Virus record (IMG/VR): IMGVR_UViG_3300024999_000139
Span: 1 to 53,943 of that record
DNA: 53,943 bases
Direction: 5' to 3' (one strand)
DNA from: a virus
Lineage: Duplodnaviria > Caudoviricetes
Shown here: in pieces, positions 1-9,665 of the stretch
How the letters are laid out: each line of letters opens with the position of its first letter
How positions within the stretch are numbered: the stretch's first letter is position 1
Program-made: the position numbers and the translations under genes
The notes under the pieces: model-generated
What the model was told of the DNA's origin: nothing
What the model saw: the letters and a program-made list of their open reading frames with translations, nothing else
Database searches by the model: none

Positions 1-154
1 CGAAGTCATCTGCTAATTGTAAAACATAACGATAATAACTTCTAGTGGACTTCATTTGCTTTTCTAAAAATTCTTCCTTAACTTCTGGATCTACTTCAAA
101 TACTAATTTGTCTTCAGTTTGTGATTCATCATTAGTAATTTCAATTTTAGTCAT
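1..154 (-). CDS. 5' part of a gene running off the window; possible SPbeta YopR/MrpR(SroF)-like recombinase-fold repressor
   Basis: GGAGGTG RBS then ATG at 154; MTKIEITNDESQTEDKLVFEVDPEVKEEFLEKQMKSTRSYYRYVLQLADDF is open to the edge. The EVKEEFL...YxxxLxxA pattern recalls the MrpR N-terminus, and it directly follows the YopQ-like gene. Confidence 0.5.
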   Translation of the reverse strand, partial: MTKIEITNDESQTEDKLVFEVDPEVKEEFLEKQMKSTRSYYRYVLQLADDF

Positions 155-169
155 TTCAAAGCACCTCCA

Positions 170-1555
170 TTAAATTAATTTTTGAAAGAATTTATAAAGA
201 TTTGTACGTGTAGATTTTTTCATGTCTGATTCTTTACTTAATTTAATATCATCCCAAAATGAATTTTCCATACTAAAGTCAATTTTATCTAAAATCTCTT
301 CAAGTATATCTTCCCACTTTTTAACACCATATAAACGTTCAGATAATGCAATATATCCTGCAAACATATTTTTATGGTTGATATAACTTACCTTCTGAGT
401 TGCTTCAGGATGTTCCATGAATGCTTCAACATTCAATCCAATGATATAATCCATGACATTTGCTATATGCTTTGCAATTGGCCTTATTTGAAGTTTGTTA
501 GTTAGTCTATCCCCATAACACTCTTCGATAGCTGTAACCAAAGTTGACTTCTTTGCCATACCGAAATGTTCAAGTTCGAAATGACCAATTTCTTTGTCAT
601 TATCCTTTATTTGATCTGCAAATTCAGAGGTATCAATATCTTTAATTGCATCCACGACTACATTGCCAAGACTAGCAGTATCCATATTCTTAATATGCTC
701 TTGTTTCATTTTTTGTTGCTTATTGATTTCTACCATATACTTTTGTGCTCTAATCTCACTATAGTTTGTTACAACTAATAACCAATTAAACTGTATGTCA
801 GGGTTAACTGCGAAAGCTAGGCTATTTCCAACTTTCCGGTGAAATCCGTCAACAAGGTTTTTAGTTCCTGAAATAATAGACAGATCACCAGATTTTTCAT
901 CATAATATATTTCATCTGTACCATCTTTAAGAACATTTATTACTATAGTGGTTGGGAATTGATCTCCTGAAAGAACACCATCTCTAATTTCTTTTGCATT
1001 TGTTTTGTTTAAATGTATTCGTTTCATTCCATATACATCAATAATTGGGTCACGTTGCGTCTTAAAATTATAGATAAATTCATTTCCAGCATCTAATTCA
1101 GCAAAATGTTTTCCTGATATATATCCAGAATAAAATCCAGGGGCAATTCTGTTCATTTTAGAAAAAACAATAACTTCGTCTTTTTTATCTACTTTCTTTT
1201 CAAATTTATAATCATTTAAGTTCTCAATTTCAATTTCATTAAAATAATTTTTGGGATCAATTCTTAATATCTCTTCAATTTTCCCCAATGGTTCTTTATC
1301 TTCTGACTCCTTATATGTCAATGCATTATACATACTCATGGTAAAAATAAATAACATTATTAAATCTTTACTTTCATCAATATCTAATGTGGATAATTCT
1401 CTGTTTTTATTTAGAATACCAACTGCCAAACTACCCTTCATATTTCTTTTGTCAAACTCTTCAACAATTATTTTTCTTACCTTGTCGTTCGATGCATATT
1501 CTTTAATTAAAACGTTCAATTCTTGAATTAACTCAACTGATTTTTCTTTTAACAT
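170..1555 (-). CDS. DGQHR/DndB(ParB-Srx)-like protein, SPbeta YopQ(SroE)-like
   Basis: 461 aa with LVDGFHR motif and downstream EINKQQK; size and position match YopQ as I recall it. Confidence 0.65.
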   Translation of the reverse strand: MLKEKSVELIQELNVLIKEYASNDKVRKIIVEEFDKRNMKGSLAVGILNKNRELSTLDIDESKDLIMLFIFTMSMYNALTYKESEDKEPLGKIEEILRIDPKNYFNEIEIENLNDYKFEKKVDKKDEVIVFSKMNRIAPGFYSGYISGKHFAELDAGNEFIYNFKTQRDPIIDVYGMKRIHLNKTNAKEIRDGVLSGDQFPTTIVINVLKDGTDEIYYDEKSGDLSIISGTKNLVDGFHRKVGNSLAFAVNPDIQFNWLLVVTNYSEIRAQKYMVEINKQQKMKQEHIKNMDTASLGNVVVDAIKDIDTSEFADQIKDNDKEIGHFELEHFGMAKKSTLVTAIEECYGDRLTNKLQIRPIAKHIANVMDYIIGLNVEAFMEHPEATQKVSYINHKNMFAGYIALSERLYGVKKWEDILEEILDKIDFSMENSFWDDIKLSKESDMKKSTRTNLYKFFQKLI

Positions 1556-1596
1556 TTAAATATCACTCCTTCACATCACTATCATACTTATATAAT

Positions 1597-1626
1597 ATAA
1601 TACCATAGACTTCCTAATGATGTCAA
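1597..1626 (-). promoter_or_regulatory. sigma-A promoter for the YopQ/YopR-like genes
   Basis: TTGACA-18 nt-TATTAT with TG extension. Confidence 0.65.
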
Positions 1627-1644
1627 GAAATAATACTTATTTTT

Positions 1645-1687
1645 ATAATAAACTGCTCAGTGGCATGGTCTCAGAGCAGTTTATTAT
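1645..1687. terminator. intrinsic terminator-like hairpin
   Basis: 14-bp perfect inverted repeat ATAATAAACTGCTC/GAGCAGTTTATTAT downstream of 1706..2104. Confidence 0.7.
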
Positions 1688-1705
1688 GCTTCAAATGTTA
1701 AGTTA

Positions 1706-8475: not shown

Positions 8476-8521
8476 GTAAAAGATTTATTATTAATAATCA
8501 ATTAAATTATATCTCTCCTTC

Positions 8522-8572
8522 TTAAATTGCATAAGCAATATTATATTTATTTTTTACAATTCCAATCATCAT
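8522..8572 (-). pseudogene. 16-codon ORF resembling a MazF C-terminal remnant
   Basis: MMIGIVKNKYNIAYAI; shares TTGCATAAGCAA with the mazF 3' end near 9250. Confidence 0.4.
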
Positions 8573-8581
8573 ACCAATCAC

Positions 8582-9220
8582 CTAAGAAGTAATTAATGAG
8601 TATGTAGATTCAATTGGATATCCTAATAAAAGTCCTACTATTACTGATTCAATAACTGTTCTAGGATTTCCATAATTCCAATCTGTAAGATAATTTGATA
8701 ACTCATTATCTATAATTTTTAAAAGATTATCTTTTATCAAATTATAGATCCATTTATCATGAGAAGAATCTAGTAAATTATATGATTCAATAACCGCATC
8801 AATATCAAGTAGATCACCTATTTTCCCATGTTGACAAATATTAAAACCATATCTTATTGGAAAATCTGGATTTTTCCAATCTAATTCATCTATTGTATAA
8901 GGCAGCCTAGACTCAATAATAAGTTTCATAAATTCATCTTTTTGTTCCTCACTAAATGAATAGCAAAATCCAATAGGTTTTAATCCATTAATAACATCTT
9001 GTAGAAGATTTATCTGCGTTGATAATTCTAATCCATTTTCATCACACATACTCCATCCACCGCAATGATTTAGATTTTCCCATCGTACCATTGGAGAAGT
9101 AAAAGGAATCATAACCTTTGGATATTTATACTTCATTAATACATACCCATTTCTAATGAATTTAGTTACCAAATGCTTTTTAAATTCATTGTGGAATATA
9201 CCAGTTAATTTTTCTTTCAT
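8582..9220 (-). CDS. hypothetical protein
   Basis: 212 aa, AAGGAG RBS, C-terminal GLLLGYPIEST. Confidence 0.75.
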   Translation of the reverse strand: MKEKLTGIFHNEFKKHLVTKFIRNGYVLMKYKYPKVMIPFTSPMVRWENLNHCGGWSMCDENGLELSTQINLLQDVINGLKPIGFCYSFSEEQKDEFMKLIIESRLPYTIDELDWKNPDFPIRYGFNICQHGKIGDLLDIDAVIESYNLLDSSHDKWIYNLIKDNLLKIIDNELSNYLTDWNYGNPRTVIESVIVGLLLGYPIESTYSLITS

Positions 9221-9243
9221 ATAAACTCTACTCCTTTTTTCTT

Positions 9244-9624
9244 TTAATTTGCATAAGCAACTTTATTTCTTATATTATGATTAAACAAACCAAACTGCAC
9301 CATTAAACCTTCTTCTAATTTATTTACAATTAAACTACTGCATACACCTATTTTCTTACTAAAAACCTCTTTCGGAAGCAACATTACTTGTTCGCAAAGT
9401 GCGACTGAATCCTTTAAGAGTCCACTACTAACCATTGGCACAGAAACATGAGTAGGTATCCATTTCTTAAAAACCTTACTGGATAAAGGGATTGCGTGAA
9501 TAACAGGAGAATGTAACAAACTCATATGATTCGAAATAATTATCATTGGTCTTTGACAAATTGTTTGCACTGATCCTCCAACATTATTTTGTACTGTAGC
9601 TAAGTATATATCTCCTCTTTGCAT
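9244..9624 (-). CDS. PemK/MazF-family endoribonuclease with no adjacent antitoxin
   Basis: MQRGDIYLA...RPMIIISN...IPLSS...PTHV...DSVALCEQ. Confidence 0.88.
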   Translation of the reverse strand: MQRGDIYLATVQNNVGGSVQTICQRPMIIISNHMSLLHSPVIHAIPLSSKVFKKWIPTHVSVPMVSSGLLKDSVALCEQVMLLPKEVFSKKIGVCSSLIVNKLEEGLMVQFGLFNHNIRNKVAYAN

Positions 9625-9665
9625 ACTATAATCACACTCCTTTTATTTCTTTGTGATTATAGTAT
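9623..9665. repeat. 14-bp inverted repeat bracketing the mazF RBS
   Basis: ATACTATAATCACA (9623-9636) / TGTGATTATAGTAT (9652-9665). Confidence 0.8.

Follow-up and report, generated by a model that had tools for sequence, protein, structure and literature searches.

A candidate Agr-type peptide signalling module upstream of the YopQ/YopR repressor genes in large Clostridium phages

Judged by its sequence, the virus record analyzed here comes from a large Clostridium phage that carries, directly upstream of YopQ and YopR homologues, a set of Agr-type genes of its own together with genes for a membrane protein and two MazF RNases (Table 1). We see roughly an even chance that, in this module, a pherotype-specific phage Agr signal would be sensed by a kinase-less membrane protein, MemA, and act via the phage MazF proteins on the lysis–lysogeny decision. 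Based on open reading frames (ORFs) and family searches, all genes that an earlier note had listed between positions 1 and 9665 were located where claimed, on the minus strand, and the peptide-switch interpretation offered there is partly supported. The window, i.e., the stretch of DNA analyzed, is the whole 53.9 kb record, hence the YopR gene is incomplete here.

Table 1 Features of the module and its neighbors, with positions in the window.
Feature	Position	Strand	Evidence
MazF1, free-standing MazF/PemK RNase, 126 aa	9244..9624	-	Pfam PemK 4.8e-14; phrog_1936 3.1e-19
Hypothetical protein, 212 aa	8582..9220	-	No family match
Homing-endonuclease-like protein, 603 aa	6664..8475	-	phrog_4538 4.9e-67; homing/HNH endonuclease phrogs; NUMOD-like
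DUF5317 membrane protein	6051..6671	-	Pfam 4e-17
MemA, 7-helix membrane protein, 279 aa	5136..5975	-	AF2 model; no Pfam match
agrD, putative autoinducing-peptide precursor, 45 aa	5012..5149	-	Ring motif; BLASTP to bacterial AgrD
GC-rich hairpin	4970..4999	-	Inverted repeat just 3' of agrD
Predicted sigma-70-type promoter and abutting palindrome	4902..4949	-	Consensus match, in front of HTH-mazF
XRE-HTH::MazF fusion (HTH-MazF), 275 aa as ORF	4033..4860	-	PemK 1.3e-17 at residues 117-228
agrB, predicted AgrD-processing membrane peptidase	3370..4008	-	Pfam AgrB 4.1e-36
MemB, MemA paralogue, 277 aa	2373..3206	-	36% identical to MemA
Hypothetical protein, 132 aa	1706..2104	-	No family match
YopQ/SroE homologue, 461 aa, contains VDGFHRK	170..1555	-	BLASTP, phrog_5732
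YopR/MrpR/SroF-type repressor (integrase-fold), first 51 codons	2..154	-	Cut by contig end

We evaluated the conservation of the module across loci fetched by HTH-MazF (61 loci that encode 45 different HTH-MazF sequences, of which 40 are full length) and by YopQ. Identical gene order recurs across dozens of independent contigs, hence the arrangement is not due to chance. Among relatives of the HTH-MazF set, AgrB was found in 30/30, MemA in 29/29, AgrD in 29/29 (one spotted by eye), and DUF5317 in 28/29, while MazF1 was detected upstream in 27 of the 29 relatives for which 3 kb or more of upstream sequence was available. The earlier note had held that its reading would fall if the module were not linked to repressor genes in relatives. 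This linkage was clear: the module was present at 9/10 loci fetched by YopQ, and YopQ and YopR lay downstream, starting 0.76–3.9 kb after HTH-MazF, in every one of the 20 HTH-MazF loci that extend 6 kb or more downstream. By predicted gene content, this part of the genome is where lysogeny is controlled, and the module immediately precedes the SroE and SroF (YopQ/YopR) repressor genes.

Carriers of the module are a group of uncultured Clostridium phages of 150–230 kb. Five related phage genomes, of which three have a completeness rating of 100%, were searched: each contained a single AgrB, AimR was found in none, and neither HATPase_c_5 nor LytTR above cut-off was detected in any of the five, in line with the earlier claim of a system with no kinase and no AgrA. 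A tblastn search with AgrB and MemA against 50,697 GenBank phage records yielded nothing at E 1e-3 or better. No recombinase was found in one relative (G003, 230 kb), so that not every carrier is clearly temperate. Comparison across loci places the 212-aa gene and the endonuclease gene outside the conserved module: the 212-aa protein had no family match in Pfam or phrog searches and homologues only in the L008/L020/L043 contig and L054, and the endonuclease gene is a predicted mobile insertion whose position shifts among relatives (ahead of DUF5317 or YopQ, or following YopR). The 132-aa protein, also without a match in Pfam or phrog searches, had homologues at 10/10 YopQ-fetched loci and is a frequent, not universal, neighbor upstream of YopQ. 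A promoter scan placed a promoter-like site at 2213–2185, 5' of its gene.

The left-edge genes are, as had been proposed, homologues of YopQ and MrpR/YopR. The YopQ homologue matched SPBc2 YopQ (BLASTP 1e-21, 24% over 389 aa) and phrog_5732 (5.8e-58), and tblastn matched it to 36 phage records, SPbeta, phi3T, and Geobacillus E3 among them. The 51-aa 5' end alone gave a weak MrpR_N_CB match below cut-off (E 0.014); it shares 90% identity with the beginning of a 348-aa protein from a relative (L004, 11402–12448) that matched MrpR_N_CB at 5.3e-13 (49.9 bits vs a cut-off of 27), and the YopR-like protein of another relative (L015) aligns with SPBc2 yopR over 308 aa (1.6e-11). According to excerpts of PMC10516654, mrpR and yopQ are core lysogeny-phase genes in SPbeta-like phages. 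A promoter-like site (1626–1597) and a perfect 14-nt inverted repeat (1645–1687) were also observed upstream of the YopQ gene. The earlier description of the phage as SPbeta-like applies only loosely: among the 102 minus-strand ORFs of the window, only YopQ and YoqJ gave SPBc2 tblastn matches, while YonO RNA polymerase was found in 2/5 relatives at 53–55% identity. No homologue of AimX, YosL, or yopM to yopP of the SPbeta sro operon was found for the module phage, with only sroE and sroF of that operon represented.

By sequence, the module includes AgrD and an AgrB with the His/Cys pair. G79, G80, H82, and C89 of AgrB are kept in at least 95% of 38 sequences. The 45-aa agrD ORF, whose true start may be an internal MKKYAII, gave no Pfam AgrD match at E 0.1 or better, and BLASTP linked AgrD to bacterial AgrD adjoining AgrB (1e-4 to 2e-7). 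AgrD spans 38–55 aa across module loci, all of which displayed [S/C]xxxx[YHNF]QP at the same AgrD position. Overall, 42 distinct ORFs encode 36 different five-residue rings with the [YHNF]QP processing site kept, and the first ring residue is Ser in 32/36 (lactone), otherwise Cys. In this phage, the predicted ring SYFIS, followed by YQPKTPSCMK, starts with Ser and is thus predicted to be a lactone.

Diversity in AgrD was associated with diversity in MemA. The AF2 model of MemA (pLDDT 81) has seven long helices and a C-terminal helix, without a Pfam, PDB, or fold match and with no detectable similarity to AgrC or any solved fold. All MemA relatives are at most 326 aa long, with a variable core and conserved N-terminal 50 residues and acidic tail. 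MemA clades track ring types, and memA and agrD are exchanged as one cassette between otherwise identical backbones, MemA being the sole gene besides agrD inside it. Specifically, two loci (L014 and L026) with flanks 100% nucleotide-identical on both sides differ by a 61–78% island across memA and agrD, such that AgrB is identical while the rings differ and MemA is 33% different; in another pair (L032 and L070), HTH-MazF is 1% different, MemA 58% different, and the rings differ. When near-identical backbones carry so many private signals, the sensor that matches each signal would be expected to move together with agrD. Ring distance was correlated with the divergence of MemA (rho 0.48), AgrB (0.46), HTH-MazF (0.44), and DUF5317 (0.31), and uncorrelated for MazF1 (0.06), MemB (−0.13), YopQ (−0.05), and YopR (0.00). 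A partial Mantel test of ring vs MemA given HTH-MazF gave 0.28 (p 0.0005), with p-values that are liberal for these related sequences drawn from few studies, and some AgrD–MemA co-variation is expected from linkage alone because the genes are adjacent. This co-diversification suggests a receptor role for the membrane proteins, rivalled by an accessory ancestry in the agr operon (see below), and makes kinase-less MemA a candidate both for the specificity partner of AgrD and for the AIP receptor. MemB is encoded at 16/40 non-redundant loci. Its sequences group into a single clade inside the SWL-type MemA clade, regardless of which ring is encoded locally; MemB is unmatched to the AgrD of its own locus and may be a second, orphan receptor.

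HTH-MazF is a candidate output regulator and RNase. Its AF2 model combines an XRE-type HTH at residues 21–101 (2ofy_B, Z 10.0, rmsd 2.7, 76 aligned) and a MazF fold at 114–234 (Z 16.5), and its profile matched B. subtilis EndoA/MazF in the PDB (4mdx, 8.6e-31). R139 is invariant; S163, aligned with EndoA Thr48, does not vary within a set of 10 sequences, and we take both to be catalytic from what is known of EndoA-type MazF. The family comprises 131 clusters, almost all metagenomic, and the protein probably starts at the ATG at 4839, since M8 is invariant and preceded by a Shine-Dalgarno-like AAAAGGA. No MazE was recognizable next to MazF1 or HTH-MazF, and the C-terminal tails of the two proteins (..KVAYAN and ..QQVAYAR, respectively) have VA[YF]A in common.

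A hairpin just 3' of agrD (−15 to −26 kcal/mol) was present in 40/40 loci as 28 different sequences, and is a probable terminator or attenuator between two transcription units; it has no T-run, which is why a strict terminator scan found none. The TTGACA-18-TATAAT promoter at 4931–4902 is the only 12-of-12 match in positions 1–11500, and 28/40 loci displayed the strict promoter pattern before HTH-mazF. The palindrome ACAATTAnnnTAATTGT abutting this promoter (4933–4949) was not above chance in the window and not consistently conserved.

Like the arbitrium of SPbeta/phi3T, the module combines a putative secreted peptide with many specificity variants, a position 5' of the repressor genes YopQ/YopR (SroE/SroF), a hairpin right behind the peptide gene, and a MazF-type RNase in the proposed output pathway (excerpts of PMC10769878 and 10.1101/2025.11.27.690993). 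The earlier note had drawn this MazF parallel, which agrees with PMC10769878: in phi3T, lysogeny is favored by active host MazF, which AimX and YosL bind and inactivate. However, arbitrium has AimR, absent from all five module genomes, and a linear hexapeptide that is imported, while the module peptide would be AgrB-processed, presumably cyclic, and sensed outside the cell; arbitrium uses host MazF, whereas module MazF is phage-encoded and HTH-fused. With the clostridial agr operon, the module shares the AgrB His/Cys pair, the five-residue AgrD ring and QP site, and DUF5317 and an IPE-motif membrane protein as accessory genes; the C. perfringens order is CPE1563-CPE1562-agrB-agrD (excerpts of PMC2706048). 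It differs from agr quorum sensing (agrBDCA) in lacking both the AgrC kinase and AgrA, in the replacement of Cys by Ser in most rings (32/36), in the basic (QPKTPxC) rather than acidic AgrD tail, in gene order, with HTH-mazF between agrD and agrB, and in a Mem protein ~110 residues longer than its counterpart. Gene order suggests that CPE1563 corresponds to DUF5317 and CPE1562 to the IPE protein. The C. difficile phage phiCDHM1 also bears agr genes without agrA (excerpts of PMC3901668 and PMC11945551), but retains an AgrC kinase and is unlinked to YopQ/YopR. Finally, the module shares an EndoA-type MazF fold and an XRE HTH, as in the HigA and HipB antitoxins, with MazEF toxin–antitoxin systems, but has no MazE beside either MazF, an HTH fused N-terminally to the toxin, and the VA[YF]A tail on both proteins.

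The likeness to the agr operon bears directly on the role of MemA. By sequence comparison, DUF5317, with invariant polar residues H150, D164, D167, and D177, is an agr-operon accessory gene descended from a clostridial four-gene agr operon, and so, probably, is MemA, which could therefore be a maturation factor and not a receptor. The phage would then make a signal that it does not sense, with MemA and DUF5317 as inherited maturation/export accessories, a host kinase reading or being blocked by the peptide, a role in lysogenic conversion or host quorum-sensing manipulation like that suggested for phiCDHM1, and separate addiction or defence cargo in the form of the MazF genes. We consider this unlikely, even though in Clostridiaceae genomes agrB lies within 1.5 kb of DUF5317 at 11/24 loci (10 also with an AgrD-like ORF), with a 153–172-aa membrane protein bearing the same N-terminal IPE motif between the two in 9 loci. 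These IPE proteins were the top three among 583 ORFs searched with the Mem HMM, and their hhalign alignment with Mem spanned 140 columns and kept three invariant motifs in register (E 0.0029), yet the homology is weak, with an hhalign probability of 10.6% and nothing found in the reciprocal HMM search. In C. perfringens, sensing of the peptide is generally ascribed to the VirS kinase, and a maturation/export role for MemA is favored by this and by the absence of a cytoplasmic tail in the possible IPE homologue; moreover, bacterial full-length Mem relatives (L107, L110) adjoin AgrD-like ORFs with no regulator nearby. A four-gene agr plasmid also restored C. perfringens toxin production while agrB and agrD alone did not (excerpts of PMC2706048). 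Conversely, 36 rings on near-identical backbones would uncouple the signal from a host-encoded sensor, a single AgrB serving two rings while MemA differs (L014/L026) fits a recognition partner over a generic exporter, and phage Mem has ~110 residues more than the short bacterial proteins, including the conserved cytoplasmic tail that these lack.

Two MazF toxins without a cognate MazE, along with an HTH similar to the XRE antitoxins HigA and HipB (Z 7.1–7.5), and thus conceivably an antitoxin–toxin fusion, could also suit a kin-recognition or superinfection-exclusion/abortive-infection device. The peptide would report same-pherotype lysogens, the MazF RNases would abort other phages, orphan MemB could detect foreign pherotypes, and the site beside the repressor genes would only reflect the accumulation of such cargo in a lysogeny-expressed region. 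This seems rather improbable to us: PADLOC returned no match for any of 10 module proteins, and the site directly upstream of YopQ/YopR was invariant in 20/20 loci, while defence cargo usually occupies variable hotspots with changing content. MazEF has been described as suppressing lytic spread of arbitrium phages via abortive infection (excerpts of PMC10516654, citing Cui 2022), and since MazF activity in phi3T is part of the decision itself, such a device overlaps with our best explanation and does not exclude it. An antimicrobial (bacteriocin-like) peptide with MemA and MemB as immunity proteins is very doubtful, as AgrD is homologous to AgrD beside agrB in bacterial quorum-sensing operons, Mem had no CPBP/Abi immunity family match at E 0.1 or better, and a conserved cytoplasmic tail would serve no obvious purpose in an immunity protein. 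Toxin-immunity cassettes do co-diversify and orphan immunity genes are common, as would fit the exchanged memA–agrD cassette and orphan MemB; to our knowledge, all AgrB-made peptides characterized so far are signals. SPbeta itself bears a bacteriocin and an immunity gene (sublancin, SunI; SPBc2 annotation).

In the peptide switch that we prefer, the DUF5317-memA-agrD transcript would end at the conserved hairpin, and the consensus promoter would then drive HTH-mazF-agrB(-memB). AgrB would cyclize AgrD, and the peptide would build up outside as more cells carry a phage of the same pherotype. Cognate peptide would be bound by the hypervariable helices 2–7 of MemA, which would relay the signal to the MazF-domain proteins through the conserved parts that face the cytoplasm, the first loop and the acidic C-terminal tail. 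MazF RNase activity and/or HTH DNA binding would tip the decision to lysogeny, as host MazF does in phi3T, with lysogeny then established by the adjacent YopQ/YopR genes. The direction of this effect (high peptide leading to lysogeny) and the MemA–MazF contact are guesses drawn from analogy, and we infer the effect on lysis–lysogeny from gene position and the arbitrium analogy. From its genes and their arrangement, the module would appear to be a novel type of communication switch between phages.

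The window (~28% G+C), whose 53.9 kb are the entire record, carries long open reading frames (ORFs) exclusively on the minus strand, and ORF calls and family searches from position 9665 down to 1 recovered each item of the gene list drawn up in the earlier note. No tRNA gene was found in the window, positions 1-9700 had no megablast match among GenBank phages, and a search of sequencing runs returned 5 DNA runs from 2 studies, with no RNA run listed. Further cargo includes a sigma-factor gene, a radical-SAM protein and a DUF1385 membrane protein.

Features of the window discussed in the text
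Feature	Position	Strand	Basis
YopR-type gene, initial 51 codons	2-154, left edge	-	via L004 relative
YopQ homologue, 461 aa	170-1555	-	BLASTP to SPBc2 YopQ
Promoter-like site before yopQ	1626-1597		consensus match only
Perfect 14-nt inverted repeat, 15-nt spacer	1645-1687
132-aa hypothetical	between memB and yopQ	-	ORF
Promoter-like site before 132-aa gene	2213-2185		consensus match only
MemB, MemA paralogue	2373-3206	-	ORF
AgrB	3370-4008	-	Pfam AgrB, 4.1e-36
HTH-MazF, 275 aa, C-terminal half MazF	4033-4860, between agrD and agrB	-	PemK, 1.3e-17
TTGACA-18-TATAAT, after hairpin	4931-4902
GC-rich hairpin after agrD	4970-4999
AgrD-like, 45 aa	5012-5149	-	ORF
MemA, polytopic membrane protein, 279 aa	5136-5975	-	ORF
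DUF5317 protein	6051-6671	-	DUF5317, 4e-17
Homing-endonuclease-like protein, 603 aa	6664-8475	-	ORF and family matches
212-aa hypothetical	8582-9220	-	ORF
MazF1, free-standing MazF	9244-9624	-	PemK, 4.8e-14
DUF1385 membrane protein	10204-11079	-	2.1e-46
Polynucleotide kinase/phosphatase/RNA ligase fusion, 730 aa	18202-20394	-	phrog_8238, 4.2e-221
Sigma factor	32940-33662	-	phrog_351, 4.4e-48
YoqJ homologue	42996-43559	-	SPBc2 YoqJ, 39% identity
Radical-SAM protein	50855-52099	-

The genes at the left edge had been taken for homologues of YopQ and MrpR/YopR, i.e., SroE and SroF of the SPbeta sro repressor operon, and this was upheld. The 461-aa protein aligned to SPBc2 YopQ (460 aa) over 389 residues at 24% identity (1e-21), and by this alignment it is a true YopQ homologue; used as a tblastn query, it matched 36 phage records, among them those of SPbeta, phi3T and Geobacillus E3 and a Clostridium phage D-1873 contig. 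Directly after YopQ lies an integrase-fold gene in SPBc2 (YopR) and E3 (GP146), and a 368-aa hypothetical in D-1873. On its own, the 51-aa fragment scored sub-threshold against MrpR_N_CB (E 0.014) and gave no BLASTP alignment to SPBc2 YopR, D-1873 CLG_B2194 or E3 GP146. Its relatives were more informative: a 348-aa protein from the related locus L004, with a start 90% identical to the fragment, matched MrpR_N_CB at 5.3e-13 (49.9 bits vs a cut-off of 27), a more distant relative in L012 did so at 4.2e-13, and the YopR-like protein of L015 aligned with SPBc2 yopR over 308 residues (1.6e-11). From these matches, we conclude that the window ends within a YopR/MrpR/SroF-type gene. The SroE-then-SroF order is present, with YopQ followed by a YopR/MrpR protein with integrase fold and MrpR_N_CB domain. 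When the 102 window ORFs and the ORFs of L004, L006 and L015 were compared with the whole of SPBc2 by tblastn, the sole matches were YopQ, YopR, YoqJ and a YorM-like 3D domain, with none to SroA-D (YopM, YopN, YopO, YopP).

The earlier note had also predicted that the agr-MazF module would be tied to the repressor genes in relatives, which two independent entry points bore out. Viral contigs fetched with YopQ gave 10 loci (contigs of 19 to 181 kb), and in 9 of them MazF, DUF5317, a Mem protein (MemA, MemB and relatives), a small AgrD-like ORF, HTH-MazF, AgrB and often a second Mem lie upstream of YopQ-YopR. Entering instead through HTH-MazF yielded 61 loci (1 from a Clostridium sp. genome, 13 viral and 47 from metagenomes) with 45 distinct HTH-MazF sequences, of which 40 are full-length. 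YopQ and YopR, starting 0.76-3.9 kb after HTH-MazF, were found in 20/20 of these loci with at least 6 kb downstream, and AgrB in 30/30 with at least 1 kb downstream. Among the 29 loci with at least 3 kb upstream, MemA was present in all, AgrD in all (28 by BLAST, L049 by eye), DUF5317 in 28 and MazF1 in 27. Two architectures occur, with AgrB either after HTH-MazF (type I, as in the window) or before DUF5317 (L004, L006 and L011). The tenth locus fetched with YopQ, L013 (2278-6881), has MazF1 and DUF5317, then ~0.8 kb devoid of memA, agrD, HTH-mazF and agrB, then the 132-aa gene, YopQ and YopR, and thereby offers a natural comparator that lacks the module. Neither the 212-aa gene nor the endonuclease is conserved among relatives; both were dropped as module parts and are treated as insertions, since both come and go and the endonuclease moves: depending on the relative, its gene precedes DUF5317, separates the 132-aa gene from YopQ, or follows YopR, with copies in L004 (15813-17309) and L011 (7984-9777) besides that of the window.

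Signal production appears to follow the Agr scheme. AgrB residues H82 and C89, which we take to be the catalytic pair known from S. aureus AgrB, are conserved together with G79 and G80 in at least 95% of 38 sequences. All 42 distinct AgrD ORFs share one layout, i.e., a hydrophobic leader, [S/C]xxxx, [YHNF]QP and a short basic tail, usually with a Cys, while bacterial AgrD has an acidic tail. The phage AgrD matched bacterial AgrD encoded beside AgrB by BLASTP (1e-4 to 2e-7); the Pfam AgrD model gave no match at E 0.1 or better. The five-residue ring, SYFIS in the window, is highly variable, with 36 different rings among the 42 ORFs, 32 headed by Ser and 4 by Cys.

Ring variation was paired with variation in specific neighbors. 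Across 40 non-redundant loci, the Spearman correlation with ring distance was 0.48 for MemA, 0.46 for AgrB, 0.44 for HTH-MazF and 0.31 for DUF5317, compared with 0.06 for MazF1, 0.00 for YopR, -0.05 for YopQ and -0.13 for MemB. In partial Mantel tests, ring and MemA remained associated given HTH-MazF (0.28, p 0.0005), and the converse and the tests for AgrB and DUF5317 gave 0.13-0.21; memA and agrD are adjacent and the related sequences come from few studies, so these p-values are liberal. Ring type also groups the MemA tree. The clearest evidence for signal-partner pairing is provided by natural swaps, which mark memA and agrD as a specificity cassette. Between L032 and L070, divergence is 1% in HTH-MazF, 14% in DUF5317 and 58% in MemA, with rings SYFVT and SWAFS, and L028 and L031 have a common ring (SWYFA) and identical MemA. 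The window (ring SYFIS) and L070 (SWAFS) are 92% alike in HTH-MazF. L014, on a contig of an uncultured Clostridium sp., and L026 are 100% identical in nucleotide sequence through MazF1 and again from mid-HTH-mazF on, around an island of 61-78% identity that runs from about codon 50 of memA to agrD; their AgrB is identical and their rings differ (SWLWS vs SWLFT). As near-identical backbones carry 36 private signals, one would expect the sensor to travel with the signal, and MemA, as the only other gene in the agrD cassette, would be that sensor.

The MemA sequence has features compatible with such a role. Its AlphaFold2 (AF2) model (pLDDT 81) has seven long helices and a C-terminal helix, and the positive-inside rule predicts an outside N-terminus and a cytoplasmic tail. 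Column identity reaches 0.52-0.64 in residues 1-50 and 0.48-0.55 in residues 251-279, against 0.22-0.46 in between, and the tail QQTYENLVMQDD[IV]MLDVED is kept in most type I loci with any ring type. Such a pairing of variable core and conserved cytoplasmic face would be expected of a receptor with a common output. In the best 150 of 228 representatives, no Mem relative exceeds 326 aa, and no Pfam domain was detected in 55 clusters. A search for longer homologues found no fused Mem form of at least 504 aa, a weak negative as proteins of AgrC length fall below that range. Against the PDB, Foldseek returned nothing for MemA at E 0.001 or better and a profile search 0 matches, and a wider fold search (VIA) gave non-specific helical matches up to Z 7.6. 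One hint alone connects MemA with sensors, and we treat it as a lead only: by Atlas features, MemA scores 0.91 against a cluster whose automatic name is ‘sensory transduction protein kinase’ (240 aa, no Pfam domain). Identity as a CPBP/CAAX protease was rejected, as invariance in the ‘EE’ pair is limited to E20 and neither His motifs nor a Pfam match are present. Separately, the MemB sequences of 16 loci make up a single clade nested within the MemA clade of ‘SWL..’ type, regardless of the local AgrD ring; MemB is an apparent orphan paralogue and could listen to another pherotype.

A profile of ten HTH-MazF relatives matched B. subtilis EndoA/MazF (4mdx, 8.6e-31) as well as S. aureus and B. 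anthracis proteins. In a fold search of the HTH-MazF AF2 model (pLDDT 72), residues 114-234 matched MazF folds (up to Z 16.5) and residues 21-101 an XRE-family helix-turn-helix (HTH; 2ofy_B, Z 10.0, rmsd 2.7, 76 residues aligned), with further HTH matches to CapH, C.AhdI, SinR, P22 c2, ImmR, HigA and HipB, and the XRE class making up most remaining rows. By sequence, 16 members gave no Pfam family for the HTH at a meaningful E-value, the PDB profile search returned SinR only, at E 1.2, and the Atlas score was 0.76, so that it is the predicted fold that points to an XRE-type domain. The GGxRP arginine (R139) is invariant in HTH-MazF, as is S163, aligned with EndoA Thr48, among the 10 sequences of one alignment; both are presumably catalytic. 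Translation likely starts at the ATG at 4839, given an invariant M8 and the Shine-Dalgarno-like AAAAGGA before it.

Beside the clear MazF toxin domains, the neighboring ORFs 8582-9220 and 9748-10044 matched no antitoxin family that would indicate a MazE. The fused XRE domain could serve as antitoxin. Because neither MazF has a MazE, it is attractive to picture the acidic tail of MemA as a tethered, MazE-like antitoxin, but this is pure speculation; when two copies of the MazF domain of HTH-MazF were submitted to complex prediction with MemA residues 244-279 (the tail), no answer was returned, at a score of 0.02. MazF1 and HTH-MazF, otherwise ~30% alike, share a V-A-[YF]-A end in most relatives (window 9244-9264 and 4033-4053), as ..NNVAYAN in MazF1 and ..QQVAYAR or ..QVAFA in HTH-MazF, which could be a degradation tag or docking motif. 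Elsewhere, the window encodes a heal-and-seal RNA repair enzyme, the 730-aa fusion; MazF cleavage leaves 5'-OH and cyclic-phosphate ends, and given this chemistry the enzyme could undo it.

The boundary between agrD and HTH-mazF is marked by likely transcription signals. In 40/40 loci, agrD is followed by a GC-rich hairpin (-15 to -26 kcal/mol), in 28 different sequences, indicating that it is kept by compensating changes; it has no T-run, and a strict terminator scan returned 0 sites. The TTGACA-18-TATAAT sequence after it is the only perfect sigma-70-type match in positions 1-11500, and the strict pattern recurs in 28/40 loci. A palindrome abutting its -35 box (4933-4949) was not above chance (2 matches vs 2.4 expected), and no consistent palindrome was found across the 40 loci. 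The perfect inverted repeat, which separates the 132-aa gene from yopQ's promoter-like site, could function as terminator or operator.

We evaluated the genomic setting in 5 related records of 150-230 kb, 3 rated 100% complete and 1 with terminal repeats. Each has exactly one AgrB, and none of the 5 encodes an AgrC-type HATPase_c_5 domain (PF14501; HPK10-type kinase) or an AgrA-type LytTR domain (PF04397) over cut-off, in line with the proposal of a system with neither kinase nor AgrA. AimR was found in 0/5, a weak negative from the single query SPBc2 AimR with no positive control, and AimR/AimP-type genes were not found in window positions 1-12000. The YonF terminase was matched in 5/5 carriers, with strong matches only in G003 (6e-101) and G005 (1.6e-27), the YonO RNA polymerase in 2/5 (53-55% identity), tyrosine recombinases in 4/5 and serine recombinases in 2/5. 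The description ‘SPbeta-like’ is therefore reasonable for the repressor cassette and some carriers, but is loose for the window, itself a fragment, in which YopQ and YoqJ alone of 102 minus-strand ORFs match SPBc2. GenBank phage records gave no tblastn match to AgrB or MemA, and the Mem and HTH-MazF families are nearly all metagenomic.

As to origin, DUF5317 is not a phage invention, since it occurs in 22/60 sampled Clostridiaceae genomes. In 11 of 24 bacterial DUF5317 loci (L078-L101, 1.5-kb flanks), those whose DUF5317 is closest to the phage protein (41-49% identity), it is followed by AgrB, and in 10 of these 11 there is an AgrD-like ORF of CxxxxYQPEEP type as well. These loci give DUF5317, on which our literature search found no paper, an agr context. 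In 9 loci, a motif search identified a membrane protein of 153-172 aa between DUF5317 and AgrB, termed here the IPE protein, with a (G/L)IPE motif in its first helix as in Mem. An hhalign comparison of Mem with IPE proteins (E 0.0029, probability 10.6%, 140 columns) placed invariant IPE, Glu and PS motifs in register, and a Mem HMM ranked three IPE proteins at the top of 583 ORFs, at only 8-10 bits; the reciprocal search of phage ORFs did not recover Mem. Homology between the two families is hence suggestive, not established. Full-length Mem relatives were found in 3/300 further Clostridia genomes, and 2 of 4 bacterial full-length Mem loci have an AgrD-like ORF directly after, once with a divergent AgrB adjoining, among housekeeping genes. 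Genomes G110 and G188 are among those with full-length bacterial Mem relatives. The bacterial relatives followed by AgrD-like ORFs (L107 6210-7258 and L110 6044-7816; 309 and 277 aa) have no kinase or regulator nearby.

The order DUF5317, IPE protein, agrB, agrD is that of the four-gene agr operon of C. perfringens strain 13, CPE1563-CPE1562-agrB-agrD, as reported in PMC2706048, and CPE1563 and CPE1562 would accordingly belong to the DUF5317 and IPE families. The phage module looks like a captured clostridial agr operon, from which it differs in a Mem ~110 residues longer, in HTH-mazF inserted between agrD and agrB, and in MazF1 added upstream.

The sequence data establish the parts, their homologies, their linkage and the cassette behaviour. 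Our best reading, to which we give an even chance, is that an Agr-type signal of private pherotype passes between phages and biases the lysis-lysogeny decision via MemA and MazF. Specifically, AgrB would process AgrD to a five-residue lactone (or thiolactone) peptide, the level of which would rise with the number of cells carrying the same pherotype. MemA would sense this peptide and act on the MazF-domain proteins via its conserved cytoplasmic face, and MazF RNase activity and/or the HTH would then bias, in a direction we can only infer, the decision executed by YopQ/YopR. The proposed MazF output is drawn by analogy with phi3T, in which, according to PMC10769878, host MazF is bound and inactivated by AimX and YosL, and, once AimX is lost at high peptide levels, MazF can promote lysogeny. 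Other work describes AimX as a MazE-like antitoxin (10.1101/2025.11.23.689978), MazE as bound by YopM (PMC10516654) and SroF as master repressor over the operon sroA-F (10.1101/2025.11.27.690993).

Three rival readings were weighed. In C. perfringens, both upstream ‘hypothetical’ genes are co-transcribed with agrBD and toxin production was restored by the four-gene plasmid only (PMC2706048); alongside this, MemA and DUF5317 may be seen as maturation or export factors for a peptide read by the host, which we hold to be rather unlikely, the swaps tying memA itself to ring type. A kin-recognition or abortive-infection device would overlap with the lysis-lysogeny reading and, as an explanation in its own right, seems quite improbable; PADLOC returned 0 matches for 10 module proteins. 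As for a bacteriocin accompanied by immunity proteins, a reading under which memA and agrD would also pair, we consider it very improbable.

The lysis-lysogeny reading can be extended to a new transduction logic, in which a kinase-less seven-helix receptor reads a private lactone (at least 36 pherotypes) and directly gates phage MazFs, one of them fused to an XRE HTH, perhaps held on a membrane-tethered MazE-like acidic tail, MemB eavesdrops on a foreign, SWL-type pherotype, lysogeny follows from controlled RNA cleavage, and the whole arose independently of AimR/AimP by capture of a host agr. In its entirety this is unlikely. The likelihood that signal transduction here works by a novel kind of mechanism is substantial. 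The known phage agr genes of phiCDHM1 differ in that AgrC is kept and that they are located elsewhere. Our full-text literature search, which covered article texts, returned no description of phages in which an agr module is combined with MazF and YopQ/YopR. One review mentions agr homologues in ‘SPbeta-like phages’ (PMC11945551), with references that, judged by one title, appear unrelated.

Arbitrium, the AimR-AimP-AimX system, relies on a linear peptide that is imported and bound by a cytoplasmic receptor and is, to our knowledge, so far the only established phage-to-phage communication deciding between lysis and lysogeny. If our reading is true, MemA-type proteins would be candidate readers of Agr peptides in the many agrBD loci without agrCA, and both ‘hypothetical’ members of the clostridial agr operon would gain a candidate role. 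The 36 ring variants with matched MemA sequences constitute a ready natural data set on specificity. Taken together, a captured host Agr operon and phage MazF RNases would then provide a second, mechanistically unrelated solution in arbitrium's genomic slot, such that slot and MazF output would be the conserved logic and the signalling chemistry its replaceable part.
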